From a virus (lineage: Duplodnaviria; Heunggongvirae; Uroviricota; Caudoviricetes): a DNA stretch of 14,330 nucleotides. Positions 935-13,371 of this stretch are shown in pieces; position 1 is the stretch's first letter; every line of letters begins with the position of its first letter. Where the stretch lies: IMG/VR virus record IMGVR_UViG_2695420809_000009, positions 1 through 14,330 of that record. One strand, 5' to 3'. The notes below the pieces were generated by a model. It was not told the origin of the DNA. It saw only the letters and a program-made list of their open reading frames with translations, and made no database searches. The position numbers and the translations under genes are program-made.

Positions 935-2620
935 GTGAATATAAACGTCGCCGAATTGTTAAATGGGAATTACATTCTGTTATTATTTGTGGTCCTCGCG
1001 CTTGGGCTATGTCTCGGGAAATTACGACTTGGTTCGATCCAACTGGGTAATTCCATTGGCGTTTTAGTCGTATCGCTGTTATTAGGCCAACAACATTTCA
1101 GCATTAACACCGACGCGCTTAATCTTGGCTTTATGCTGTTTATTTTCTGCGTCGGGGTCGAAGCCGGACCGAACTTTTTTTCCATTTTTTTTCGCGATGG
1201 GAAAAATTACCTAATGTTAGCACTGGTGATGGTTGGCAGTGCGCTGGTGATCGCCTTAGGGTTAGGTAAGCTGTTTGGCTGGGATATTGGCCTGACGGCC
1301 GGTATGTTAGCTGGCTCTATGACGTCGACACCGGTTCTGGTCGGTGCTGGCGATACACTGCGTCATTCCGGCATGGAAAGCAGGCAGCTCTCACTGGCAC
1401 TGGATAATCTGAGCCTCGGGTATGCCTTAACCTATTTAATCGGTCTGGTGAGTTTGATTGTTGGTGCGCGTTACTTGCCGAAATTGCAGCATCAGGACTT
1501 ACAGACCAGCGCCCAGCAAATCGCCCGCGAACGTGGCCTGGACACTGATGCCAACCGTAAGGTTTATTTACCGGTGATCCGCGCCTACCGCGTCGGCCCG
1601 GAGCTGGTGGCCTGGACCGACGGCAAAAATCTGCGTGAACTGGGTATTTATCGACAAACTGGCTGCTACATTGAACGTATTCGACGTAACGGGATTCTGG
1701 CGAATCCAGACGGTGATGCTGTGCTACAAATGGGCGATGAAATAGCGTTGGTAGGCTATCCCGACGCCCACGCACGACTCGATCCCAGCTTCCGTAACGG
1801 CAAAGAAGTTTTCGATCGTGACCTTCTCGACATGCGTATCGTCACTGAAGAAGTGGTCGTTAAAAACCATAACGCCGTGGGCAAACGTCTCGCACAACTG
1901 AAGTTGACCGATCACGGTTGCTTCCTTAACCGCGTCATTCGTAGCCAGATTGAGATGCCGATAGATGACAACGTCGTGCTTAACAAAGGTGACGTTTTAC
2001 AAGTCAGCGGCGATGCCCGTCGCGTAAAAACCATCGCCGATCGCATCGGCTTTATCTCGATTCACAGCCAGGTCACTGACTTGCTGGCATTCTGCGCCTT
2101 CTTTGTTATTGGGCTGATGATCGGGATGATCACCTTCCAGTTCAGCACATTCAGTTTCGGCATGGGGAACGCTGCCGGGTTGTTATTCGCCGGAATTATG
2201 CTGGGCTTTATGCGCGCTAACCACCCGACCTTCGGTTACATTCCGCAGGGTGCATTAAGCATGGTGAAAGAGTTCGGCTTAATGGTGTTTATGGCAGGCG
2301 TTGGTCTGAGCGCCGGTAGCGGTATTAATAACGGCCTGGGCGCGATTGGCGGTCAGATGTTGATTGCCGGATTGATTGTCAGTCTTGTGCCAGTGGTTAT
2401 CTGTTTCTTGTTCGGTGCTTATGTATTGCGAATGAACCGCGCACTGTTATTCGGCGCAATGATGGGCGCACGCACCTGCGCGCCGGCAATGGAGATCATC
2501 AGTGATACAGCTCGCAGTAACATCCCGGCGCTGGGCTATGCGGGCACCTATGCAATCGCCAACGTCCTGCTGACGCTGGCAGGGACAATCATCGTCATGG
2601 TATGGCCAGGATTAGGATAA
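935..2620 (+). CDS. ybjL: putative AAE-family transporter YbjL (membrane domains flanking two central cytoplasmic TrkA-C-like domains)
   Basis: 561-aa ORF with GTG start at 935; hydrophobic N- and C-terminal blocks with a soluble central region; length and sequence match my recollection of E. coli YbjL. Confidence 0.9.
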
Positions 2621-2732
2621 AACTGAAGTTGCCCTGAAAATGAAATTTTTTTGCACAACCGCAGAACTTTTCCGCAGGGCATCAGTCTTAATTAGTGCCA
2701 CTGCTTTTCTTTGATGTCCCCATTTTGTGGAG

Positions 2733-2779
2733 CCCATCAACCCCGCCATTTCGGTTCAAGGTTGATGGGTTTTTTGTTG
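2733..2779 (+). terminator. candidate rho-independent terminator downstream of ybjL
   Basis: CCCATCAACC (2733-2742) pairs with GGTTGATGGG (2760-2769), followed by TTTTTTGTTG; the 17-nt loop is longer than typical. Confidence 0.5.
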
Positions 2780-2855
2780 TCTGAAATTTATGCCGTTTAA
2801 AATCATGACGTTAGAAGCACTGTTTTTTAACGATGGCGACAAAATGGCGGCAGCG

Positions 2856-3074
2856 TCAAAGAGAGAGCGCCACCTGTCCTGATTTCATTGGATGCGGCTG
2901 AACCGGATTTGACTCTTTTGGCGTTGCAATCGAACGAACAAAAGTTTCATGGGTTACAAAAGTATGGCTGCAGTTAATATTCTGGCACTGGTTGTAACGC
3001 TCTTTGGTCAATGAAGATACCTGAAAACTGCTGCGAGTATGGGCGGCACTTCCACACAGTGGGCAAATCATCAT
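2856..3074 (-). CDS. ogr: Ogr/Delta-type zinc-finger late-gene transcription activator
   Basis: 72 aa from ATG at 3074 (MMICPLCGSAAH...YNQCQNINCSHTF...); two Cys pairs as in P2 Ogr. The ORF track extends further upstream to a GTG, but the ATG at 3074 gives the Ogr-like N-terminus. Confidence 0.8.
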   Translation of the reverse strand: MMICPLCGSAAHTRSSFQVSSLTKERYNQCQNINCSHTFVTHETFVRSIATPKESNPVQPHPMKSGQVALSL

Positions 3075-3164
3075 TTTTCGAGTTCTCCCCATTTTTGCTA
3101 AATTCACAATAATGATACCGCATTATTCCATTTTGCAAACTTAAAAGTTCTCCATTGCGAAGAA

Positions 3165-4265
3165 TCATTCCATTTCGAAATCATCAATCCTCACTTCAAG
3201 CTCCAGACTGGTCGTAAAACCGTTATCCGGGCTGACGGTATGCGTCAGAGTCGTAATGGTCCATTCCGCATCATCTATCGGCTGTTTAAAACCACTGACC
3301 TTCACAGGCATTTCCGTGTAGAGATCTGCCCGCCCTTCTGCCAGTTGTAGCGAAAATGACGCAACGCCGCGTTGCAGGCGTTCCCACTGCATTTTCGCCG
3401 CTCGTTCGGCGTTGCTCCGGTTGGCATAAGTGCGATTAAGTACCAGCACGTTTTCATCCGTACCCACCAGGTAATCGCCCTGCTTCGCTTCTGGCTCTTT
3501 CTTCTGCTTCTTAGTTCTGCGCTTACGCTTCACCGTGGTGCTTTCTTTCTTCGCAGGTTCGCGGGTATGCAACCAGCTGGCAATTACGCCCGTGTAGGCT
3601 CCGCGATCTGCCAGGGTAAATCGGTGACTGTCGCCGTCCTTGCGTGTGATAGTGATCACTGGCAGAGGTTTACCAGTGGCGCTTTTGCCCTGCCCCTGCC
3701 GGATGAATAACAGATTGCCATTTTTCACCGACGCGATGGCACCGTACTGTCGCGCCAGCCGCATCAGAAAACTGCCGTCACTCTCATTAGTCTGGTCTAT
3801 ATGCTCCACGGGCTTATCCGACAGGTCTTTACCCAGTGCCATCTTCAGCTTGTGCCGCGCGGCTATTTCCTTCACCACTTCCCCGACGGTGGTCTTATGC
3901 CACGATTTTTCACGGCGGGTATTCAGCGTTTCCCGAAAATCAGCACTTCGCGCCCGGATAGTCAGGCGGTCCGGTGCGCCAGTGTGTTCAATCTCGTCCA
4001 CTGTGAATGCCCCTTTCGGGAAAAGCGGCTGCCCCTTCCAGCCCAGCGCCAGCGTAATAACCGCACCACGGCGCGGCAGCACGATTTTTCCGTCAGCGTC
4101 ATCCAGCTCCAGATCAAGCTGGTCCGCTTCAAAGCCCCGGTTATCCGTCAGCGTCAAACTCATCAGGCGGTTATCCAGCACAGTGGTGATATCCCTGCCC
4201 TCAATACTGATGCTGAATGCGGGAGTTTTGTTGCCTTTGTTAAGCAGTTCAGAGCTGAAATTCAC
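3165..4265 (-). CDS. P2 gpD-like tail protein (late control gene D family)
   Basis: 366-aa ORF; sits immediately upstream of ogr as in P2; GTG start at 4265 overlaps the stop of the preceding U-like gene, suggesting translational coupling. Confidence 0.85.
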   Translation of the reverse strand: MNFSSELLNKGNKTPAFSISIEGRDITTVLDNRLMSLTLTDNRGFEADQLDLELDDADGKIVLPRRGAVITLALGWKGQPLFPKGAFTVDEIEHTGAPDRLTIRARSADFRETLNTRREKSWHKTTVGEVVKEIAARHKLKMALGKDLSDKPVEHIDQTNESDGSFLMRLARQYGAIASVKNGNLLFIRQGQGKSATGKPLPVITITRKDGDSHRFTLADRGAYTGVIASWLHTREPAKKESTTVKRKRRTKKQKKEPEAKQGDYLVGTDENVLVLNRTYANRSNAERAAKMQWERLQRGVASFSLQLAEGRADLYTEMPVKVSGFKQPIDDAEWTITTLTHTVSPDNGFTTSLELEVRIDDFEME

Positions 4266-4747
4266 GACAGCAGCCCTCCCACCGTTTTACTGATATCGCT
4301 TAAGGCAGACGTTGCCGTGTCCTGCAGATTATTCAGTTGCGCACTGAGATCACCGAACATATCGGACAGGGATTCATCCACTCGTTTGAGCGACAGGGTG
4401 AACTCAATCCGGCGCGGCATACCGTCGCGGAAAAACTCCGTTTTAGTCTGATTCAGTCCCTCAATCACATACATGCCGTAAATCGTGCCGCTGCCTTCAA
4501 TCAGGGGCCATGCTTTCCCCTGTTCTGCCATCTGCTCCAGTGCCAGCAACGACAGCCTGCCGCCTGTTATTTCCGGCATAAGAACACCGGAAAGCGTCAG
4601 CATGTCGTTTTCCGGTCCCAGAAACTGCGTGGACGGACGTCGGTTTACCCGACTGTTTGCCGCATGTCGCCAGCTGCGTTGATACTGCAGTTCCTGATAC
4701 GGAACGGTGCGCAGCATAAACACGTACAATCCCAGCACCATCATCAT
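4262..4747 (-). CDS. P2 gpU-like tail protein
   Basis: 161-aa ORF starting MMM; length and position (between tape measure and D) as in P2; start overlaps the stop of the upstream fusion ORF. Confidence 0.8.
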   Translation of the reverse strand: MMMVLGLYVFMLRTVPYQELQYQRSWRHAANSRVNRRPSTQFLGPENDMLTLSGVLMPEITGGRLSLLALEQMAEQGKAWPLIEGSGTIYGMYVIEGLNQTKTEFFRDGMPRRIEFTLSLKRVDESLSDMFGDLSAQLNNLQDTATSALSDISKTVGGLLS

Positions 4748-6411
4748 GCGTCGTATCCCCCCTGATCGCTGTAGTTACTCCTGGCTTTTGCCTTCAGCCT
4801 GCGTTCACGTTCATCAAGCTGGCGTGCCACCTCCCGCGCAATATCCTGCGCACTTTGTCCTGGCTGCGTCTGAATGATGATCTGCGTCGGTGCCTCAATC
4901 CGTTGAACGAGCGGCACAGTGGCTGCGCGACTCACAATTGCTTCTCCACCTTTCGCGGGAAGTGCCAAAGGGTGCAACGGTGGAAGCTCTGCTGGCGCGG
5001 CAGCAACGCCCATCATTCCGGCAACAACGGCAGCCAGTGCAGCTGTATTTCTCCGGCTGGTCACATTTGCCGGGCCGTTAACAATTTCCGGCCCGTTTTC
5101 ACCGACGATGCCAAACTGCCCGCGCGGGATATACCCGCCGCTGTCATACATCCCCGCAAAGCCATATCCCCATGATGGAAAACCACCCGATGGCATCATC
5201 ACTTTACCGTCTGCATTCACCGTCGCAGGTTGCTGACGCGTCACGCTTTCCGGCAGTTTTGCCTTTGCGGCCTCTTTACTGACAATGCCGAGCTTCTCCA
5301 GCAACCAGGAAACGCCGGATTTCAGGGAATCCAGCGGATGCATGACCATATTCAGCCCTTCCGCCAGTGCCTCCCCGAATCGCCGCCCCATTGCCGCTGC
5401 GCTCTGCAGTTCGGCAGAGGTCGACTTAACGGGCGTCAGCAGATCAGTAAACCAGCCCCACAGCGCCTGCACTTTGTCGCCAATCCACTGGAACACGGGC
5501 TTAAGCGGTTCGAACGCTGCACTGATGGGACCTGCCGCCGCTTTGAATCCTTCCACCACGCCACCGAGAAATGCGGTGATGGATTGCCAGTATTTCCAGA
5601 CAACCAGCGCCACGCCCGCCAGTGCAGTAACCACAAGACCTATCGGACTGAGCAGAGCACCTAACAGACCAGATACCGGGTCCTGCAGATCCCAGAACAC
5701 ATCAGCAGAAATTCCGGTGACACCGTTCACGCCCACGTTGGACAGGCTTTTGTGCCATCCAGTCTGCTCATCAATTTTGGCGCGCAGACCGAGCGCACGG
5801 GCGGTGGCATATGCCGTTGCTTCGGCATTCAGCACCGTGTCCCAGCCAGTAAAGTCAGGCCAGATCAGCATCCCTTCGCGCTGGCTGAAGTTTTCGCGGT
5901 AAGTGATCGCCTCCTGCACTGTCTTGCAGCCATACGCTGACAGGTAAGCAAACCCACGCAGGCTTTGCGCCACGCTCAGCAACTCAGTAGCTACCGCCTT
6001 GGTGTCGTGGCCTGGCACGCCGAGAATGCGCGGTTTAACGCCGAGCTGTGACTGGGCAGATAACAGGGCTTTCATACCTGTTTTTTTACCTTCAGCAGTC
6101 ACTGCGCCGATGATATTGGTCGTGGTTTCTTCTTCCGTTTCACCCTGCGGCACACGCACAACAACGGTCACGGGTTTTGCCTGGTCAGCGATGGCATCCA
6201 GCGAGCGGGCCAGTGTGCCGGACTCACCCGCTTTACCGCTGGCAGTCAGCACATCAGTGATCAGCACGGGTTTATTAAGAGGAAACATTTTTGCATCGGC
6301 ATCATCGCCCGTGCAGACCATCCCCACGATGGCGGTGCTCACCGTGGTAATGGATCGGGTGCCTTCGTTGACTTCAACAACGCGCACCCCGTGGTGGTAA
6401 TCCTGAGCCAT
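4744..6411 (-). CDS. in-frame fusion: N-terminal ~240 aa of a P2 FI-like tail sheath protein joined to the C-terminal ~310 aa of a tape-measure (gpT-like) protein; likely a deletion derivative
   Basis: N-terminus (MAQDYHHGVRVVEVNEGTRSITTVSTAIVGMVC...) matches my recollection of the P2 sheath N-terminus. After about residue 244 (around nt 5680) the sequence switches to a hydrophobic and Ala/Gly-rich tape-measure-like C-terminus. Strong AGGAGG Shine-Dalgarno upstream of the ATG at 6411. Confidence 0.7.
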   Translation of the reverse strand: MAQDYHHGVRVVEVNEGTRSITTVSTAIVGMVCTGDDADAKMFPLNKPVLITDVLTASGKAGESGTLARSLDAIADQAKPVTVVVRVPQGETEEETTTNIIGAVTAEGKKTGMKALLSAQSQLGVKPRILGVPGHDTKAVATELLSVAQSLRGFAYLSAYGCKTVQEAITYRENFSQREGMLIWPDFTGWDTVLNAEATAYATARALGLRAKIDEQTGWHKSLSNVGVNGVTGISADVFWDLQDPVSGLLGALLSPIGLVVTALAGVALVVWKYWQSITAFLGGVVEGFKAAAGPISAAFEPLKPVFQWIGDKVQALWGWFTDLLTPVKSTSAELQSAAAMGRRFGEALAEGLNMVMHPLDSLKSGVSWLLEKLGIVSKEAAKAKLPESVTRQQPATVNADGKVMMPSGGFPSWGYGFAGMYDSGGYIPRGQFGIVGENGPEIVNGPANVTSRRNTAALAAVVAGMMGVAAAPAELPPLHPLALPAKGGEAIVSRAATVPLVQRIEAPTQIIIQTQPGQSAQDIAREVARQLDERERRLKAKARSNYSDQGGYDA

Positions 6412-6487
6412 AGCGGCGAACCTCCTGATTGGATTAGGCTTCGCCCTATGTTGAAGTGATTGTGCCCGACAAACAGCTAAGTGTAGT

Positions 6488-6505
6488 TGTACAGTTATTC
6501 ACACA
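6488..6505 (-). promoter_or_regulatory. candidate Ogr-dependent late-promoter dyad (TGT-N12-ACA)
   Basis: TGTACAGTTATTCACACA-type dyad, TGT at 6488-6490 and ACA at 6503-6505, in the 142-bp gap between pin and the sheath fusion gene, centred about 85 bp upstream of the ATG at 6411. Chance occurrence of a 6-base match is not negligible. Confidence 0.3.
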
Positions 6506-6553
6506 AAATGACGGTATTTGTCTGCTTGCAGGGATAATCAAAATTATGCTGAT

Positions 6554-7120
6554 TCAGGGGGATTCATTGCTCTTATTTGCCGGAAATTTTCTATAAATGG
6601 TAGAAACGCCCACATCAAAAATCAGTGCAATACGCTGTCTTGATTCTCCGGCCTCGAGTAAACGTCCAATCTGTGCCCACTGTTCGGTGGTCAACTTAGG
6701 ACGGCGTCCACCTACTCTGCCTTTGGCGCGAGCTGCAGCAAGCCCCGCCCTGGTACGTTCAACTATCAGTTCGCGCTCCATTTCAGCCAGGGCCCCCATG
6801 ACATGAAAAAAGAAACGTCCCATTGGGGTACTGGTATCAATACTGTCAGTCAGGCTTCGGAAATTCACGCCACGCTGGCGCAGATCTTCTATCAGCGTAA
6901 CGAGATGCCGCATACTGCGCCCCAACCTGTCCAGCTTCCAGACAACCAGAGTGTCACCTGCCGATAATGTCCTGAGCAGTTTTTTCAGTCCCGGTCTGTC
7001 GGACTTAGTGCCACTGATTTTGTCCTCAAAAATCCGCTCACATCCCGCGCAGTTCAGTGCATTACGTTGCAAATCGGTGTTCTGGTCATTTGTTGACACG
7101 CGTACATAGCCAATAAGCAT
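6554..7120 (-). CDS. Pin/Gin/Hin/Cin-family serine DNA invertase (copy 1)
   Basis: N-terminus MLIGYVRVSTNDQNTDLQRNAL with catalytic serine context, plus C-terminal HTH; closely resembles my recollection of e14 PinE. Start taken at the ATG at 7120 (MLIGYV) rather than the ORF-track start at 7126. Confidence 0.9.
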   Translation of the reverse strand: MLIGYVRVSTNDQNTDLQRNALNCAGCERIFEDKISGTKSDRPGLKKLLRTLSAGDTLVVWKLDRLGRSMRHLVTLIEDLRQRGVNFRSLTDSIDTSTPMGRFFFHVMGALAEMERELIVERTRAGLAAARAKGRVGGRRPKLTTEQWAQIGRLLEAGESRQRIALIFDVGVSTIYRKFPANKSNESP

Positions 7121-7201
7121 GATCAATCCCCTGAATAAAAACCGGGGATGATGCCAGTTAGTCGTAATCGCTGCATTTTCTTAAACGTTGGTTTGAGAGA
7201 A
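7083..7201. repeat. left arm of inverted repeat (pin 5' end, leader, crossover site)
   Basis: Manual alignment: 7083-7201 matches the reverse complement of 9042-9160 with about 10 mismatches over about 120 bp; similarity continues outward through both pin genes and ends inward exactly at the crossover sites. Confidence 0.75.
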
Positions 7202-7822
7202 GGTTCATTTGGGTTCAGAAATCTGGTTGCCTTCACAACGGCTGGAGTAACAAGCTGGACTGTTCCTGAAGAGTTGCGCAAAGGAAGAAAATGTTACGTC
7301 AAAGTTATTGGTGGCGGTGCGTCAGGAGGGATAGGTTCAACAACCGCTTCAGCCGTTACATGTGGCGGAGGAGGTGGTGGGGGCGGAGTTGCTGAGGGGC
7401 TGGTAGATTTAACTGGTATAAACAGTGTTTCGATTACGGTTGGTACCGGTGGTGCGCCTGTGTCTGGTATTTCTGTAAACGGTAAAAATGGTGGCTCGAG
7501 CAGTTTCGGGACTTACATGTCAGCTTCCGGAGGCTATAGCGGAGGCCAGCCTTCCGGAGGGTTAGGCGCAGTTGGTGTCGGGGGAACAATTAATATATCG
7601 CTTGGGCCAGGTTCTCCAGGTTCCATTGCTTCTGCCGCATCGGGAGCTGGTAATGGTGGTTCTGGTGGTGGCCCCGGAGGAGCAGGTTCATTCAGAGATA
7701 CAGCTAACGGAAAAGCGGTATCAGCAGTTGGGCCTGGAGGTGGCGGAGCTGGATTATGTCCTAATTCATCAACGGGTCAGTCGGGTGCCGGAGCAGATGG
7801 CGCAGTTTATATTTACTGGTGA
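7148..7822 (+). CDS. tail-fibre variable C-terminal segment, glycine-rich (no constant N-terminal part present)
   Basis: 224-aa ORF beginning MMPVSRNRCIFLNVGL inside the repeat arm; in-frame TAA three codons upstream of the ATG; long Gly/Ser-rich body; reads into the invertible segment. Confidence 0.6.
   Translation: MMPVSRNRCIFLNVGLREGSFGFRNLVAFTTAGVTSWTVPEELRKGRKCYVKVIGGGASGGIGSTTASAVTCGGGGGGGGVAEGLVDLTGINSVSITVGTGGAPVSGISVNGKNGGSSSFGTYMSASGGYSGGQPSGGLGAVGVGGTINISLGPGSPGSIASAASGAGNGGSGGGPGGAGSFRDTANGKAVSAVGPGGGGAGLCPNSSTGQSGAGADGAVYIYW
7176..7201. other. 26-bp hix/gix/cix-like crossover site (left)
   Basis: TTTTCTTAAACGTTGGTTTGAGAGAA, an imperfect palindrome with AAACC/GGTTT half-site cores; sits at the boundary between the repeat arm and the divergent interior. 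Confidence 0.65.
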
Positions 7823-7829
7823 GGTTCAT

Positions 7830-8000
7830 ATGTGGGCAAGAATTGAAGAAAATAAAGTAGAAGAGATAACGGAAATTAATCCTGAAGGAAGATTCCATCC
7901 ATCATTAATATGGAAAGAATGCCCTGCTGACACACAGCAGGGGGATTTATATATTGATGGTGAGTTTATTGCGCAGTCTCCGGCAGTTCAGGCCAGATAA
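7830..8000 (+). CDS. small 56-aa ORF downstream of the Gly-rich fibre segment, possibly a truncated tail-fibre assembly gene
   Basis: ATG at 7830 preceded by GAGG; sits where a partner chaperone gene would be expected; its 3' end overlaps the convergent tfa gene. No recognisable motif, so this call is weak. Confidence 0.3.
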   Translation: MWARIEENKVEEITEINPEGRFHPSLIWKECPADTQQGDLYIDGEFIAQSPAVQAR

Positions 8001-8574
8001 CATCCGGCGCGGTGCTGGTATCTGTTGCCGTCACCGCGTCAATGTAATCCAACACCGTGTTAAGTCGGCTGGTTTCTGACTGCGTCAGATTCCGTCCGGC
8101 CTGTAATTTCAGCTGAATCAGACTAATGGAAGCCATTGCAGTATCAATCAGTGACTGACGCTGTGCTTCTGCCGCGTCTACTGCGGCGCTATGCTGTGCC
8201 TCAGTATCGGTCACCCATTTCTCACCATCCCATTTATCGTATGGCGTTAATGGGGCGATAGTGGTTGTATTTTCGGGGTGATCACCCGGTGCTGTGATTT
8301 CTTTGGCATCTCCCGTTTCGGTGTTATAGACGATTTCACCGCGATGGTCTGGCACATATTCCCATGAATTTAAATCTACAGAACGGCAAATTGTATAACC
8401 AGCCTTATATGTACCAGGAGCGTCTAAACAGGAATATGCTGGAATACCGACACCCACTGCAAGATATTCAGTTGATGCAGAAATATATTCCCGAGTTTCA
8501 CCATCGTAGTTATAGACGGTAATATTCCCCGCCTTCGTGGCAATAAACTCGCTATTTAATACTGCGTTATCCAT
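7966..8574 (-). CDS. tail-fibre assembly chaperone (Tfa family)
   Basis: 202-aa ORF ending ...DTSTAPDVIWPELPETAQ, the conserved Tfa C-terminal motif; ATG overlaps the stop of the upstream fibre segment (TAATG). Confidence 0.8.
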   Translation of the reverse strand: MDNAVLNSEFIATKAGNITVYNYDGETREYISASTEYLAVGVGIPAYSCLDAPGTYKAGYTICRSVDLNSWEYVPDHRGEIVYNTETGDAKEITAPGDHPENTTTIAPLTPYDKWDGEKWVTDTEAQHSAAVDAAEAQRQSLIDTAMASISLIQLKLQAGRNLTQSETSRLNTVLDYIDAVTATDTSTAPDVIWPELPETAQ

Positions 8575-9095
8575 TATGCAGCCCTTACGATAAAGTTAAA
8601 TGCAATATTTCGTGGACGGGTCTCACTCCCGCCAGTATTACCGATACTCCCTCGTGAATGAAGTGTCGGTGATGGGATCAGACTCCCTCCTGTATTTGTG
8701 GCATCAAGTCCCCGTCCTTGTGTGTATGTTTTTTTGAAAATCGTAGCCAGTTCCCATTCATCTTTTGTGTCGTAACCATCATTGGCAACAACAATATGGC
8801 GGTGTTTTTCCAGCATCCCAGCCTGAAGGCTCAATAAAGCACGTCCAGCATCAATACCACGCCCGTCATCCCAGCCACGAATAAACTCACCACGTAAATC
8901 TGGCAATTTATTTGTCGGGTAAGCCTTTGCCAGTTCCGGGTATTCTTCAGCAGAAAAAGCTGCTCCGTTGCATTTCAGCCAGCCTGTTGGCGGAGTGGCT
9001 GAAGGCCACGGAACAGGGACACCAACAGGTAATGCAGAGCCTTCTCCCAAACCAACGTTTAAGAAAATGCAGAGATTATGGCTAACTGGCATCAT
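8574..9095 (-). CDS. tail-fibre variable C-terminal segment with tail-collar-type receptor-binding motifs
   Basis: 173-aa ORF beginning MMPVSHNLCIFLNVGLGEG; motifs PVPWP...GWLKCNGAAF...LPDLRGEFIRGWDDGRGID are typical of Mu/P1/e14-type fibre distal domains; the crossover site lies in codons about 10-18. Confidence 0.75.
   Translation of the reverse strand: MMPVSHNLCIFLNVGLGEGSALPVGVPVPWPSATPPTGWLKCNGAAFSAEEYPELAKAYPTNKLPDLRGEFIRGWDDGRGIDAGRALLSLQAGMLEKHRHIVVANDGYDTKDEWELATIFKKTYTQGRGLDATNTGGSLIPSPTLHSRGSIGNTGGSETRPRNIAFNFIVRAA
9042..9067. other. 26-bp hix/gix/cix-like crossover site (right)
   Basis: TTCTCCCAAACCAACGTTTAAGAAAA, in inverted orientation to the left site and differing from it at one position. 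Confidence 0.65.
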
Positions 9096-9160
9096 CCCCG
9101 GTTTTTACTCAGGGGAATGCTCATGCTTATTGGCTATGTCCGCGTATCAACAAATAACCA
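9042..9160. repeat. right arm of inverted repeat
   Basis: Reverse complement aligns to 7083-7201 (see left arm). Confidence 0.75.
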
Positions 9161-9677
9161 GAATACGGAATTACAGCGTAATGCGCTGGAGTGTGCAGGA
9201 TGTGAGCTGATTTTTGAAGACAAGATAAGCGGTACAAAGTCCGACAGACCAGGACTGAAAAAGCTGCTCAGGACATTATCGGCAGGTGACACGCTGGTGG
9301 TCTGGAAACTGGACCGACTGGGGCGCAGTATGCGGCATCTTGTCGTGCTGGTGGAGGAGTTGCGCGAACGAGGCATCAACTTTCGTAGTCTGACGGATTC
9401 AATTGATACCAGTACCCCAATGGGGCGCTTTTTCTTTCATGTGATGGGTGCCCTGGCTGAAATGGAGCGTGAACTGATTGTTGAACGAACAAAAGCTGGA
9501 CTGGAAGCAGCTCGCGCACAGGGACGAATTGGTGGACGTCGTCCCAAACTTACACCAGAACAATGGGCGCAGGCCGGGCGATTAATTGCATCAGGCGTTC
9601 CTCGCCAAAAGGTGGCGATCATCTATGATGTTGGTATATCGACACTGTATAAGAAGTTTCCGGTCGGAGATAAATGA
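9123..9677 (+). CDS. Pin/Gin/Hin/Cin-family serine DNA invertase (copy 2)
   Basis: 184 aa from ATG at 9123 (MLIGYVRVSTNNQNTELQRNAL...); roughly 85% amino-acid identity to copy 1 by eye, so the two are diverged rather than recently duplicated. Confidence 0.9.
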   Translation: MLIGYVRVSTNNQNTELQRNALECAGCELIFEDKISGTKSDRPGLKKLLRTLSAGDTLVVWKLDRLGRSMRHLVVLVEELRERGINFRSLTDSIDTSTPMGRFFFHVMGALAEMERELIVERTKAGLEAARAQGRIGGRRPKLTPEQWAQAGRLIASGVPRQKVAIIYDVGISTLYKKFPVGDK

Positions 9678-9719
9678 AACCGTAGCACGTCGTATGCAAG
9701 AAGATCGTGCTGCGGTTTA
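9678..9719. terminator. stem-loop between convergent pin copy 2 and the GIY-YIG gene
   Basis: AAACCGTAGCACG ... CGTGCTGCGGTTT, a 13-bp stem with one G-T wobble and a 16-nt loop; no clear U-tract on either strand. Confidence 0.3.
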
Positions 9720-9737
9720 TGCTTATCACTTAAAGAC

Positions 9738-10607
<870 letters not shown>

Positions 10608-10687
10608 CTAAGTCTTTGAATTTACATAGTACAAAAAAGATACTTTTCCTCATAATGTGAATTAATTTTATGTTTCGTTTGATGATT

Positions 10688-10753
10688 GGACCGGTCTCGA
10701 AAACCGGAGTAGGGGCAACTCTACCGGGGGTTCAAATCCCCCTCTCTCCGCCA
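10688..10753 (+). other. 3' fragment of a tRNA-Ser(CGA) (serU-like) gene, an integration-site scar
   Basis: GGACCGGTCTCGAAAACCGGAGTAGGGGCAACTCTACCGGGGGTTCAAATCCCCCTCTCTCCGCCA: anticodon arm with CGA anticodon, long variable arm, T-arm and CCA end; no 5' acceptor or D-arm sequence upstream. Confidence 0.7.
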
Positions 10754-11335
10754 CTTTATCAATGACTTATCTCCCGACTTCCCGCCTTGCTTTTCCTAAA
10801 CAGAACAATCGTAGAATATTCTTGAAGGGTTAGATCGTCACTGTTTTCTGTTCGATACTGTGACATTCAGCACTTGATTCGCTATGGATCTGACAGGAAG
10901 GTTTCGAGCGAAAATCTGCAGTTATTCAGTCGTTTTCTTATCGGTCACCATTATTCTTTTAGACATTGATCCTACAAAGCTGCCGCAAAGTTGGTGGTGG
11001 GAACTGAAGTTGCGTAGAGAAGGGGTCAATACCCGGAGGCAAACATGGGCTGGCAAAAGTGTAGCGGTATTAGGCGCAGCTATTTAGCCTAGTTATGTTT
11101 TATGAAAACTTGATATCATATAAGTGTCTTACTTATTGGCTGTAAATAAGTTTTTCCTAAGGAATTGTTTCTTGAGTATCATTTGTAACTGTAACGGAAT
11201 TTATAATCCTTTGCTTTATTGTTACGGTATTTTTTATCACACCCTATTTTTAGTGGTTTTTTATACTGAAGTTTGGCAAAGTGAACTTTATATACATATA
11301 CTTCATCCTAGTTTCAGTTAAATTGGGTGGATGAT

Positions 11336-12079
11336 ATGGCAACTACATGTTCAGTTATATTGATTTTGGAGTCCTTTGATGTTTATTTCGGAAAAGAGAG
11401 TGTGTTTCTGGAGAGAGGTTCATCTGTACTTGTCGACTCTAGCTCTAGAGATTTTTTCCTGACATATCCTGAAAGAGTGATAGTGGCGGATTTTGGCGCT
11501 GAGTTTATTAGTCGCTATTTGAAAGCTAATAACTTAAGGGATATTTCTGATTGTAGGGAATATCCATCTTATTTAAAAATAAACTTTGCTGACTTCAGTT
11601 TAATTAAAGGATTAATTAGTTGGGCTAATCACTGTGCTGAATACATAGAAATTTTTGATGAGTCTATTGCTTTTACATGTCTCTCTGCATTTTCTTCTGA
11701 AAAACAATTTGGAGTATTTCTGTTTGGATGTTTGAAAAGCACAGGGGCTAAAGTTAAAACGATTATTCATACGGATTTATCTGCACCATGGCGTCTTAAG
11801 GATATATCATCAAGATTATATCTCAGCGAAAGTTTACTAAAGAGGAAATTGAAAGAAGAGGGGGTATCATTCAGTAAGATCATACTTGATGAGAGGATGC
11901 AAATGGCTGAATATTTACTCAGCACTCGTTGTTATCCTATTAGTAAAGTAGCTAAGGTCTGTGGTTATGCCAGTGTCTCATACTTTACTTATGTATTTAG
12001 ACGTTATTTTGGTGTTTCTCCAAGTCAATACTCTCAGAGGAGTTCAGAAAGTAAAATTCTTACTCACCAGGGAATCTGA
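11336..12079 (+). CDS. AraC/XylS-family transcriptional regulator, AppY/EnvY/Rns-like
   Basis: 247 aa from ATG at 11336, preceded by GGTGGA; N-terminus MATTCSVILILESFD resembles AppY; C-terminal double HTH signature (WRLKDISSRLYLSES...VAKVCGYASVSYFTYVFRRYFGVSPSQY); AT-rich codon usage. Confidence 0.8.
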   Translation: MATTCSVILILESFDVYFGKESVFLERGSSVLVDSSSRDFFLTYPERVIVADFGAEFISRYLKANNLRDISDCREYPSYLKINFADFSLIKGLISWANHCAEYIEIFDESIAFTCLSAFSSEKQFGVFLFGCLKSTGAKVKTIIHTDLSAPWRLKDISSRLYLSESLLKRKLKEEGVSFSKIILDERMQMAEYLLSTRCYPISKVAKVCGYASVSYFTYVFRRYFGVSPSQYSQRSSESKILTHQGI

Positions 12080-12087
12080 TCATTGTT

Positions 12088-12545
12088 CTTGCCCCCTTAT
12101 TTCCAGACAGGGGGTGTATCTTAAGTTAACGTTACCCGCTGACGTCGATATTCTCGCGGAGAGCGATAACCCAACGCACTGTGCGGATGGTTTTCATTGT
12201 AATGTTCGATCGCCACTGCAAGATTATGCAATGCCGTTCTTACATTCGGTTTCGGCATGAACGCGATGTAGTCTTCCTTCATCGTTTTCACGAACCTTTC
12301 TGCAATTCCATTACTCTGAGGACTGCTGATTGCCGTTGTGCAGGGCTCCAGATTCAACTCTCTGGCGAACTGCCGTGTTTCATGCGCTCTATACGCTGAA
12401 CCGTTATCTGTCAGCCACTGGATGGACTGTTCCGGTACTTTATCGCCAAAGCGTTTTTCTATCGCTCCTAACATGACATCCTGCACTGTCGCTTTATCGT
12501 AACCTCCCGTGCTTGCGGCCCAGTCTATGGCTTCACGATCGCAAC
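12088..12545 (-). mobile_element. IS2-like (IS3 family) element remnant, 3' portion only
   Basis: Reverse complement of 12088-12120 resembles the IS2 right terminal repeat (...TGTCTGGAAATAAGGGGGCA); the transposase-coding match stops abruptly near 12545. Confidence 0.6.
12121..12486 (-). pseudogene. IS2-like transposase (InsD/OrfB) C-terminal fragment
   Basis: 121-aa ORF (...[25 protein letters not shown]...[20 protein letters not shown]...[14 protein letters not shown]) aligns to the C-terminal third of IS2 InsD as I recall it; the catalytic N-terminal two-thirds are missing. Confidence 0.7.
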
Positions 12546-12833
12546 AGTCCAGGGCGATTCATCTGGGCCAATCCTTGCTCATAACAGGCATTCACTTCAG
12601 TCATGGCAGAAAGGTATGCATGCTGGAGAAGTCGTGAAAGAAAAGAAGACTGCTGCGCCGTTTGTCGTCACGTTTATCTTCATTGGCTATGCAAGTCGTA
12701 ATACAAGGTGGGACAAAACTGAGACACATAAGGCCTCGCAATGGCTTGCAAGGCTTTACATGTTTTGATGTGGTGGGACGTGTGAGCGCAGTGTTGATGG
12801 GGTAATGCTTTGAATTAGAAGCGGATTCTTATA

Positions 12834-12878
12834 ATTCGTAATGCGAAGGTCGTAGGTTCGACTCCTATTATCGCACCA
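12834..12878 (+). other. 3' fragment of a tRNA-Thr(CGU) (thrW-like) gene, an integration-site scar
   Basis: ATTCGTAATGCGAAGGTCGTAGGTTCGACTCCTATTATCGCACCA: anticodon loop with CGT, T-arm and CCA end; one base shorter in the acceptor 3' strand than my recollection of thrW; no 5' half upstream. Confidence 0.6.
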
Positions 12879-13032
12879 TTCTAACGTCTCCCCAAGTCTA
12901 CTCAAGTATTTAAAAACCTCTTATAATCAGTATATTAATGCCCCTTTTAGTCTTTTGACGTCTATTTAAGTACCCCAAACTCTACAAGCAATTGAGGGGA
13001 TTTGCTGTTCAGTTTAGTGGAGATACCCCCAA

Positions 13033-13371
13033 GTGAAACTCAATGCCCGTCAAATAGACACTGCCAAGCCAAAAGAGAAGGCTTACAAGTTGGCTGATGG
13101 TGGTGGTCTGTACCTCCTGGTAAAACCTGGTGGAGGAGAATATTGGCGTCTCAAGTATCGTGTAGCTGGTAAAGAGAAGCTGTTAGCACTAGGTGTGTAT
13201 CCTGAGGTCACCTTAGCTGATGCTCCTGCAAAACTTGAAGAAGCTAAAAGAGGTATCTCTGGGGGAATCGATCTGATGGAAGTGAAGCGAGAGGAAAAGA
13301 TTGCCCGGGAAACGCAGTTAAACAACACCTTCAAAGATATTGCCCTTGAGTGGCACAGTAACAAATTATAA
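13033..13371 (+). pseudogene. P4-type tyrosine integrase, N-terminal fragment only
   Basis: 112-aa ORF (GTG start) with the N-terminal arm-binding signature AKPKEKAYKLADGGGLYLLVKPGGGEYWRLKYRVAGKEKLLALGVYPEV; stops after about 110 aa where full integrases run to about 400 aa; lies directly 3' of the tRNA-Thr fragment. Confidence 0.75.

Follow-up and report, generated by a model that had tools for sequence, protein, structure and literature searches.

The window analysed here, by which we mean the whole stretch of 14,330 nt, contains a segment of tail-fibre genes bounded by two 26-bp crossover sites and flanked on either side by a gene for a DNA invertase, pinL on the left and pinR on the right. 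The coordinates of these features and of the neighbouring genes are collected in Table 1.

Table 1. Features of the window, with coordinates and strand
Feature	Position	Strand	Remarks
Remaining genes of the P2-like remnant: ogr, D, U, in-frame sheath::tape-measure fusion	2856..6411	-	fusion from a 3.59-kb deletion, also in L018
pinL, DNA invertase of the P2-like remnant, 188 aa	6554..7120	-	between tail-sheath gene and segment
Candidate enhancer in pinL, gene nt 19-90	7031..7102	-	78% identity to cin enhancer, 88% to K-12 pinE stretch
Glycine-rich tail-fibre C-terminal cassette	7148..7822	+	Pfam Gly_rich_2, E = 1.3e-10
Left crossover site	7176..7201	-	TTCTCTCAAACC AA CGTTTAAGAAAA, interior to outside; central dinucleotide 7188-7189
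Invertible unit, central dinucleotide to central dinucleotide, 1,868 bp	7188..9055		interior is the shared cassette R, 7202-9041
56-aa ORF directly after the glycine-rich cassette	7830..8000	+	no Pfam match
Tail-fibre assembly protein, 202 aa, partner of collar cassette	7966..8574	-	Pfam Caudo_TAP, E = 8e-32
Collar-domain tail-fibre C-terminal cassette	8574..9095	-	Pfam Collar, E = 1.2e-15
Right crossover site	9042..9067	+	TTCTCCCAAACC AA CGTTTAAGAAAA; central dinucleotide 9054-9055
pinR, PinE-type DNA invertase of the thrW Mu-like-tail prophage, 184 aa	9123..9677	+	K-12 PinE homology
Candidate enhancer in pinR, gene nt 19-90	9141..9212	+	78% identity to cin enhancer, 88% to K-12 pinE stretch
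Right flank, thrW prophage: LEM-3-like GIY-YIG, AraC-family gene, IS3 fragment, P4-type integrase fragment	9738..13371		99.8% to relatives until 12880

Read from the interior outwards, the left crossover site is TTCTCTCAAACCAACGTTTAAGAAAA and the right site TTCTCCCAAACCAACGTTTAAGAAAA. The two lie in inverted relative orientation, differ at one position (7196 against 9047) and, like the sites of the Gin, Hin, Cin and Pin systems, are made up of two 12-bp half-sites about a shared 2-bp core, here AA; a pair with three or fewer mismatches arose in none of 200 dinucleotide-preserving shuffles. Each lies at the inner end of one arm of a 548-nt inverted repeat (6659-7206 and 9037-9584, 82% complementary), which comprises the 5' parts of the invertase genes and the regions upstream of them, and the similarity of the flanks ends a few bases to the interior of each site. 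A preliminary description of the window had reported two such sites with a single difference at the edge of the flank similarity, and in this it was correct; the picture it drew from them, however, has to be amended. In every normally arranged relative the outer half CGTTTAAGAAAA is restricted to the site beside the invertase, whereas the site beside the constant part of the fibre carries GGTATGCGAGAA where it adjoins P2 H or GGTTTTCGAGAG where it adjoins StfP, with 5-6 mismatches. The sites of the window are nearly identical because both are invertase-side sites and, judged against these relatives, their near-perfect match is a departure from the normal state of the system. The outer half of the left site and its base 7187 (G) are of the P2-like type, and base 9056 of the right site is C, as is typical of the pinE side; P2-like relatives have G at this position of their H-side site. 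The pinE-side site of e14 in E. coli K-12, TTCTCCCAAACCAACGTTTATGAAAA, equals the left site at 24 of 26 positions and the right site at 25 of 26 (one mismatch).

Both invertases conform to the family of small serine recombinases of about 185-195 aa that are colinear with Gin and have the catalytic serine close to the N-terminus and a C-terminal HTH. PinL aligns without a gap to residues 1-184 of Mu Gin (E = 1.9e-92) and is 86% identical in amino acids to K-12 PinE; PinR is 95% identical to K-12 PinE across its first 180 residues, and the identity of the two proteins to Gin, Cin and PinE spans 76-95%. Both genes are full length and Ser9 is retained in both, as the earlier claim of full-length open reading frames with an intact catalytic serine region had it. 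The Pfam matches are Resolvase and HTH_7, whereas neither the invertases nor the cassette proteins reached the cut-off of any NCBIfam family. Hin requires Gln151, Arg154 and Leu155 together with basic residues at 47, 48 and 51 for activation by Fis and the enhancer (PMC3798978), and both PinL and PinR carry the equivalents, Q150, R153, L154, K46, K47 and R50. The two genes are only 77% identical in DNA. In the record of phage P1 the enhancer is annotated at nucleotides 19-90 of cin, and by homology nucleotides 19-90 of each pin gene are a candidate recombinational enhancer. Two enhancer copies, as had been proposed, may thus be present, a stretch homologous to the cin enhancer occurring in both genes. 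The 15-bp Fis cores as we placed them are 49 bp apart by our count, against an expected spacing of 48 bp, and we rely only on the homology to cin. A simple sigma-70 scan found nothing promoter-like upstream of either gene, the matches in the region being not above those in shuffles, although the outcome of such a scan says little either way.

The interior of the segment, cassette R, is identical in P2-like prophages (L016, L018, L022) and in prophages with a Mu-type tail (L001, L015, L017, L020, L023, L024), the sole difference from these relatives being a SNP private to the window at 7596. The glycine-rich reading frame starts in the region upstream of pinL and is without a constant N-terminal part, i.e. 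in the 'off' position, and its exact product (224 aa) corresponds to no gene on record; in relatives this cassette is found 'on', fused to StfP (307 aa) or to P2 H (560 aa). The collar reading frame is likewise 'off', starting in the region upstream of pinR, and is 'on' in relatives as a fusion of 509 aa with P2 H or of 256 aa with StfP; the exact 173-aa frame adjoins pinE in normally arranged prophages. The exact 202-aa assembly protein recurs in either type of prophage and with either orientation, and the 56-aa frame, judged by its position, could be an accessory protein of the glycine-rich fibre. Of the features of a host-range switch, the constant N-terminal fibre part outside the segment is absent from the window and present in both parental prophages, and instead of a single invertase at one end, two invertases of different origin flank the segment. 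The segment as assembled has no constant tail-fibre part on either side, and its flipping would then alter no gene product.

The two sides of the window can be traced separately. Positions 1966-9058 differ from L018 by 4 mismatches in 7,093 nt (99.94% identity), L018 being a P2-like prophage of the rybB/ybjL type which has the same sheath::tape-measure deletion and the normal layout of H, segment and pin. Positions 7183-12880 are 99.8% identical to L001, L017 and L020, prophages of the thrW type with a Mu-like tail and the order StfP, segment, pinE, GIY-YIG. The only bases that tell the two parents apart are 7187 and 9056. Aligned to K-12, the left flank descends from ~890 kb to 888 kb (grxA, ybjM, ybjL, rybB) and the right flank ascends from the end of the thrW prophage to yagU and ecp at 303-311 kb, the two loci being ~590 kb apart in that genome. 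The gene order of the right flank also occurs in the complete genome CP148334, where a normal prophage is attached to it and the next genes are MarR, an autotransporter, yagU and ecp. The exact PinR protein stands, in all 10 places shown (33 longest contigs read), in the order baseplate, StfP, segment, pinE, GIY-YIG, with the cassettes in both orientations, and all 10 shown for exact PinL (24 long contigs read) have a single-invertase layout in P2-like prophages, the gene having the tail-fibre segment on one side and the sheath gene on the other, again with the cassettes either way round; a single invertase is found in all 20 places together (57 long contigs read). The source of the left half is thereby shown to be a P2-like remnant at rybB/ybjL, and that of the right half another prophage, situated at thrW.

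The preliminary description had treated the segment and the two pin genes as one unit of one defective prophage, a native switch in which two invertase genes accompany a near-perfect pair of sites. Taken alone the window does invite this, being symmetric, with its 548-nt inverted repeat and two intact invertases, but its halves trace to two different prophages and we regard such a native switch as extremely improbable. Each of the two pin genes, which are 77% identical in DNA, is near-identical to the sole invertase of a different widespread prophage, the flank loci are separated by 590 kb in K-12, a normal layout with one invertase is seen in the closest relative, which shares the private deletion, and the constant fibre part is missing from both sides; the contexts of PinL and PinR and the identities of the flanks refute the idea so far as sequence comparison can. 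We consider instead that the switches of two prophages have been joined in the window via a shared 1.87-kb cassette and that the join is probably an assembly chimera. In this lineage the same cassette is present in both prophages; the contig passes into it beside pinL of the first and out of it beside pinR of the second, and a short-read assembler or scaffolder is unable to distinguish two exact copies of a 1.87-kb repeat. Both junctions of the window are ordinary 'off' junctions of the two normal prophages, and on this reading the true genome would have two standard switches with one invertase each: in the P2-like prophage H constant part, site, cassette, site, pinL and sheath, and at thrW StfP constant part, site, cassette, site, pinR and GIY-YIG. 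In each of these, invertase dimers would bind the two sites, Fis would bind the enhancer in the 5' part of the invertase gene, and strand exchange at the central AA would fuse the other C-terminal cassette to the constant fibre part; a requirement for Fis and the enhancer is likewise our expectation for this system.

The assemblies are consistent with a chimera. The lineage-specific fusion protein occurs in 5 contigs, of which CYEN01000001.1 is the only one to span the segment; the sister contig L004 ends 50 nt into the cassette, and the three others were grouped with L004 by their neighbouring genes. A contig with a neighbouring WGS accession prefix, CYDV01000012.1 (L040), consists of the StfP flank and 351 nt of cassette, then a single N, and thereafter the reverse-complemented pinE flank (784 nt), site, cassette, site and pinE flank; the same unique flank stands on both sides of the cassette, and this contig is demonstrably a false walk through the same cassette. 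From the accession series and this single-N join, the assembly pipeline was presumably Illumina-only with scaffolding. Both flanks around the cassette, in the assembled or the flipped orientation, were found in none of 5,426 complete E. coli genomes, the best coverage of 77-78% corresponding to the cassette plus one flank, and look-ups of exact PinL, PinR, Tfa and the collar frame gave no two-invertase layout besides the source contig and the artefactual L040.

Inversions in E. coli are known to arise from recombination between co-resident prophages, and the join could also be real, the two prophages having recombined and inverted the ~590 kb between thrW and ybjL, although we judge this unlikely. 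The exchange could have been homologous, within the identical 1.87-kb cassette, or Pin-mediated, at the core of one site, with one product that has the cassette between two invertase genes, as in the window, and a reciprocal product that has it between two constant fibre parts. Mapped on K-12, the left and right flanks point opposite ways, which is the signature of an inversion and not of a deletion or insertion; a deletion was rejected on the same ground, the flanks being head to head against both K-12 and CP148334. Both prophages appear to face the same chromosomal direction, and therefore the invertase-side site of one is inverted with respect to the constant-side site of the other, as an inversion needs. 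The source contig is free of N and of any sequence anomaly at either junction, and Pins work in trans on the segments of other prophages (PMC12529663). The limits of the exchange, 7188-9055, fall exactly at the central dinucleotides, but this interval spans the whole cassette and favours neither site-specific nor homologous exchange nor an artefact; the interior, considered as a guide to the crossover point, is identical in both parents and places the exchange only within that interval. Against a real event stand the single draft contig, with zero independent assemblies, and the absence of the join from the complete genomes in either orientation. A walk through a repeat, moreover, predicts the same appearance, and the assembly with a neighbouring accession prefix contains one. 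The reciprocal junction was not found in a protein search with the H::collar fusion of L018, whose best hit (P0002) led to an unrelated intact P2-like prophage. Conversely, the clean junctions of the source contig count against an artefact, and real recombination between prophages would yield an identical sequence, which counts against it as well. With slightly more reserve still, we can envisage that co-resident prophages recombined through the shared cassette, perhaps by the action of Pin across ~590 kb, and that about an eighth of the chromosome was inverted. Had this happened, the window would hold an orphan switch equipped with two each of invertases and enhancers, and its reciprocal cassette would be without a nearby enhancer; the two-invertase cassette could still flip, with two good sites, invertases and candidate enhancers in cis, albeit without output. 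The recombined state could be an intermediate for swapping whole cassettes between unrelated prophages, and the 590-kb block would be a potentially reversible giant invertible segment.

An assembly chimera remains our preferred reading, and the activity of the switch can be considered alongside it. In the P2-like prophage the exact cassette lies in L016, L018 and L022 in the orientation opposite to that in L019, and in the thrW prophage L017 and L020 are opposite to L021, and H1 to H101. The C/T marker of the inner half-site moves along with the cassette, and inversion in silico at the central dinucleotide reproduces the junctions of complete genomes with 99.9-100% identity; these comparisons show that, where it is normally placed, the cassette does flip and that the exchange takes place at the central AA. 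The sole hint of both orientations for the two-invertase layout comes from L004, in which the pinL flank is joined to the cassette end opposite to that in the window. It is conceivable that the switch is a fossil, intact in appearance but no longer inverting, for instance with its invertases unexpressed; the promoter scan, which found no promoter-like site upstream of either pin, and the clearly defective state of the P2-like prophage speak for this. We nevertheless hold it to be improbable, given that the same cassette stands both ways round beside exact PinR and PinL in many genomes, that the walk in L040 requires reads of both orientations from one culture and that L004 has the pinL flank on the other cassette end. 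The segments of e14 and of P2-like prophages, moreover, flip measurably in culture, where the P2-like orientations coexist, and active Pin-type switching is already known for both (PMC4272514). That a Pin-type switch is active in a defective prophage is a reasonable view, and inversion probably continues in this strain; a two-invertase switch is doubtful. The earlier suggestion of an active DNA switch in a defective prophage is supported by the sites, the invertases and the flipping of the cassette in relatives, but not in its two-invertase unit.

If the join is an artefact, invertible cassettes common to several prophages can yield short-read contigs that are false yet plausible, and features taken from such contigs, such as the two invertases and near-perfect sites here, should not be accepted as they stand. 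If the join is real, it would document recombination between two prophage switches and tie host-range switches to large-scale chromosome rearrangement and to the exchange of cassettes between unrelated prophages.

Under either reading the switch itself is the long-known Pin system of the e14/P2 type. PinQ of the Qin prophage inverts the P segment of e14, so that, within a single cell, an invertase works on sites that belong to a different prophage (PMC12529663). A Pin-mediated exchange of the two prophages of the window would presuppose such action in trans, although the inversion described there is within one segment and involves neither recombination between two prophages nor a large chromosomal inversion. 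The invertible tail-fibre segments of P2-like prophages (EPEC; Fels-2 with Fin, in Salmonella) have an invertase gene with the tail-fibre genes on one side and FI, for the sheath, on the other, and pinL with its flank has this arrangement; in the window, unlike these, the constant part of H and the remainder of the prophage are missing on the far side and replaced by a second invertase, that of another prophage, and the tail genes bear the 3.59-kb deletion. The G segment of Mu with Gin and the C segment of P1 with Cin share the recombinase family (76-84% amino acid identity to the pins), the architecture of the 26-bp sites (the core of cix is AA, as in the window, and that of gix TC) and alternative C-terminal fibre cassettes with assembly genes, face to face, and in P1 cin also has the annotated enhancer in its 5' part. 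They differ in half-sites and cassettes, neither phage has two invertases and, in P1, cin reads towards the segment. The e14 P segment with PinE in K-12 is situated at icd, with mcrA after pinE, whereas here the locus is thrW and a LEM-3-like GIY-YIG gene follows pinE; its cassettes are StfP/TfaP and StfE/TfaE and not the glycine-rich and collar types, and it has one invertase, with the constant fibre part opposite. It resembles the right side of the window, on the other hand, in an invertase 95% identical in protein to PinR, in an invertase-side site one base of 26 away from the right site, in a StfP-side site that is the same as that of thrW-type prophages and in its gene order of ymfQ, stfP, segment and pinE.

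By every feature tested, the system around the 1.87-kb tail-fibre segment belongs to the Gin/Hin/Cin/Pin family of DNA invertases. The preliminary description had proposed two inverted 26-bp crossover sites, mismatched at a single base, and two intact invertases carrying the catalytic serine; both proposals are borne out, the former to the nucleotide. A 548-nt inverted repeat (82% complementary), made up of the 5' parts of the invertase genes and their upstream regions, has the two sites at its inner ends, and no comparable site match was found in shuffled sequence. Alignment of the pinL product with residues 1-184 of Gin is gap-free (E = 1.9e-92), and identity to K-12 PinE is 95% for pinR and 86% for pinL. 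The residues identified as necessary for Fis/enhancer activation of Hin (Q151, R154, L155 and basic residues at 47, 48 and 51; PMC3798978) all have equivalents in pinL and pinR. The Cin enhancer is annotated at nt 19-90 of cin in the P1 record, and the same interval of both pin genes, our candidate enhancer, shows 78% identity to the cin stretch and 88% to its K-12 pinE counterpart. As judged from sequence, no component of a Gin/Hin-type system is thus missing, the enhancer being a candidate only.

Read from the interior outwards, the window sites are TTCTC(T/C)CAAACC AA CGTTTAAGAAAA. They have the AA core and general pattern in common with the cix sites of P1. The pinE-side site of the K-12 prophage e14 reads TTCTCCCAAACC AA CGTTTATGAAAA. 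In normally arranged relatives, CGTTTAAGAAAA is the outer half-site on the invertase side; on the fibre side the outer half is GGTATGCGAGAA where it adjoins the P2 gene H and GGTTTTCGAGAG where it adjoins StfP, and the paired sites differ at 5-6 positions in every relative with the normal layout. The near identity of the window sites is sufficiently explained by both being invertase-side sites. Their single difference falls at position 6 of the inner half-site (T or C) and labels the two cassette ends: TTCTCT always accompanies the glycine-rich end and TTCTCC the collar end, regardless of the flank that they face.

Features of the window and their coordinates
Feature	Position	Strand	Basis
Core E. 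coli genes grxA, ybjM, ybjL	window start		
RybB sRNA, full length	2700-2778	+	Rfam RF00110, 105 bits
P2-like remnant: ogr, D, U and sheath::tape-measure fusion	after rybB	-	
In-frame fusion of sheath N-terminus to tape-measure C-terminus, 555 aa	4744-6411, junction 5676	-	
pinL invertase gene	6554-7120	-	
Left crossover site	7176-7201		
Glycine-rich ORF, 224 aa			Pfam Gly_rich_2
56-aa ORF, right after glycine-rich cassette	7830-8000	+	no Pfam match
Collar ORF, 173 aa			Pfam Collar
Right crossover site	9042-9067		
pinR invertase gene	9123-9677	+	
LEM-3-like GIY-YIG nuclease gene, directly after pinR	9738-10562	-	
IS3-family integrase-core fragment and P4-type integrase N-terminal fragment (112 aa)	12121-13371		

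The rybB gene is flanked by ybjL on one side and on the other by the P2-like remnant, whose ogr end is 77 nt away. The attachment site of the P2-like prophage is probably at, or just past, the 3' end of rybB. Comparison with relatives reveals that the fusion ORF was created by a 3,590-bp deletion, with loss of the sheath C-terminus, the tube gene, E/E' and most of T. To the right of the GIY-YIG gene lie an AraC-family gene, the IS3 and P4-type integrase fragments, which are leftovers of successive thrW insertions located between the prophage and a MarR/autotransporter island, and a MarR-family gene. In e14 the slot of the GIY-YIG gene is occupied by the restriction gene mcrA, and the gene here is possibly one of defence; it is kept at the listed loci with an exact PinR, except for two contigs (L055 and L057) in which no gene is called there.

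The two halves of the window have separate close relatives. The left part (1966-9058) differs at 4 positions in 7,093 nt from contig L018, a P2-like prophage at ybjL that continues past the segment into a normal tail-fibre gene H and the remaining prophage; L018 carries the identical sheath::tape-measure deletion, which must therefore predate the join and serves as a lineage marker. The right part (7183-12880) is 99.8% identical to contigs L001, L017 and L020, whose prophage has Mu-like baseplate genes and the order ymfQ, stfP, segment, pinE, GIY-YIG, AraC. The complete genome CP148334 places this prophage at the thrW locus, since the integrase fragment and MarR gene of the window recur next to it there, with an autotransporter, yagU and the ecp operon beyond them. 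Between the two prophage kinds the interior (7202-9041) does not differ, and the window departs from both only at position 7596, the sole cassette base private to this assembly, where T replaces the C of all relatives and codon 150 of the glycine-rich ORF encodes Ile in place of Thr. The parents can be distinguished only at 7187, which is of P2 type, and at 9056, which is of pinE type; each of these bases adjoins a central dinucleotide, so that the switch of parent can be placed anywhere within 7188-9055 and no finer. The comparison points to a recent exchange of whole cassettes between P2-like and Mu-like-tail prophages, with either the conserved sites or the cassette as the place of exchange. 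The 1.87-kb cassette, with at most 2 SNPs, occurs in these two unrelated prophage types in many strains (L001, L015-L024).

In its normal contexts the cassette does flip. Both orientations occur in the P2-like prophage (L016, L018 and L022 vs L019) and in the thrW prophage (L017 and L020 vs L021, and the complete genomes H1 and H2 vs H101). When the window was flipped in silico, from central dinucleotide to central dinucleotide, and the junctions compared with complete genomes, the pinL flank with the flipped cassette matched AP021895 at 100.0% and the flipped cassette with the pinR flank matched CP145657 at 99.9%. Exact copies of PinL and PinR are widespread, with a single invertase at all 20 of the loci shown (57 long contigs were read), varied cassette pairs and either orientation. 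Coexistence of orientations in cultures has been measured for the segments of e14 and P2-like prophages (PMC4272514), and a Pin is able to work on segments that belong to other prophages (PMC12529663). The suggestion of an active switch is thus reasonable for the normal contexts, but the two-invertase layout to which it was attached is probably an artefact.

The whole region is absent from every complete E. coli genome, the best matches comprising the cassette and one flank; among the 5,426 searched, not one carries the two flanks around the cassette in the assembled or the flipped orientation. Relative to K-12 the two sides of the window are opposed: the left descends from ~890 to 888 kb and the right, which starts at the thrW prophage end, ascends in the direction of yagU (303 kb). 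If the contig is correct, this implies an inversion of ~590 kb between the two prophages, through homologous recombination within the shared cassette or through Pin activity at the sites, and a reciprocal junction of StfP, cassette and H would be expected elsewhere in the genome. We consider such an inversion rather unlikely; the contig adds little to its low prior, because a blind choice by the assembler is equally likely to give this contig from either genome.

It is reasonably probable that a short-read assembler instead took a path through the shared repeat of a normal genome. Short inserts are too small to span the 1.87-kb repeat, each window junction has an ordinary counterpart (L018 likewise joins the pinL flank to the glycine-rich end, and L020 the collar end to the pinR flank), and the join is seen in CYEN01000001.1 alone, which is identical to the window. 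The sister contig L004 (GCA_001283865.2, CYDW01000005.1, 1-76), which has the same fusion protein and to whose group three further contigs were assigned by neighbouring genes alone, stops 50 nt into the cassette; it joins the pinL flank to the collar end, opposite to the window, and its site reads TTCTCCAAAAAAAAAGTTTAAGAAAA, with each C in positions 7-15 changed to A, probably an error caused by low coverage where the contig ends. That spurious walks occur at this locus is shown by L040 (CYDV01000012.1, GCA_001284905.2), of neighbouring WGS accession prefix, whose plainly false path at 3886-8830 runs from the StfP flank and 351 nt of cassette through a single N (4244) and 784 nt of reverse-complemented pinE flank to site, cassette, site and pinE flank, with the same unique flank on both sides. 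Such a path needs reads of both orientations and so points indirectly to flipping of the segment in the L040 culture. An assembly artefact and a real inversion would both yield the sequence of the window.

In the normal prophages, family membership suggests that invertase dimers would occupy both sites, that Fis would bind the enhancer located towards the 5' end of the invertase gene, and that cleavage and strand exchange at the central AA would join the constant fibre part to an alternate C-terminal cassette, expressed with its own assembly protein. As assembled here, neither cassette ORF has a constant part, whichever way the cassette faces, and a simple scan found no promoter-like site at the start of either. 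Were the layout real, the cassette could still flip but without effect; on each side the outer flank is the upstream region of an invertase gene. The 56-aa ORF, which overlaps the 3' end of a convergent 202-aa assembly gene, may encode an accessory protein for the glycine-rich fibre.

The nearest described relatives are the P segment of e14, which has PinE, and the segments that invert in P2-like prophages; switches of these types, and the fact that they can be active in defective prophages, are already known. The sole unusual element, the two-invertase junction, is probably not real; if it is, it would represent the rearrangement product of two known switches and not a new kind of switch.
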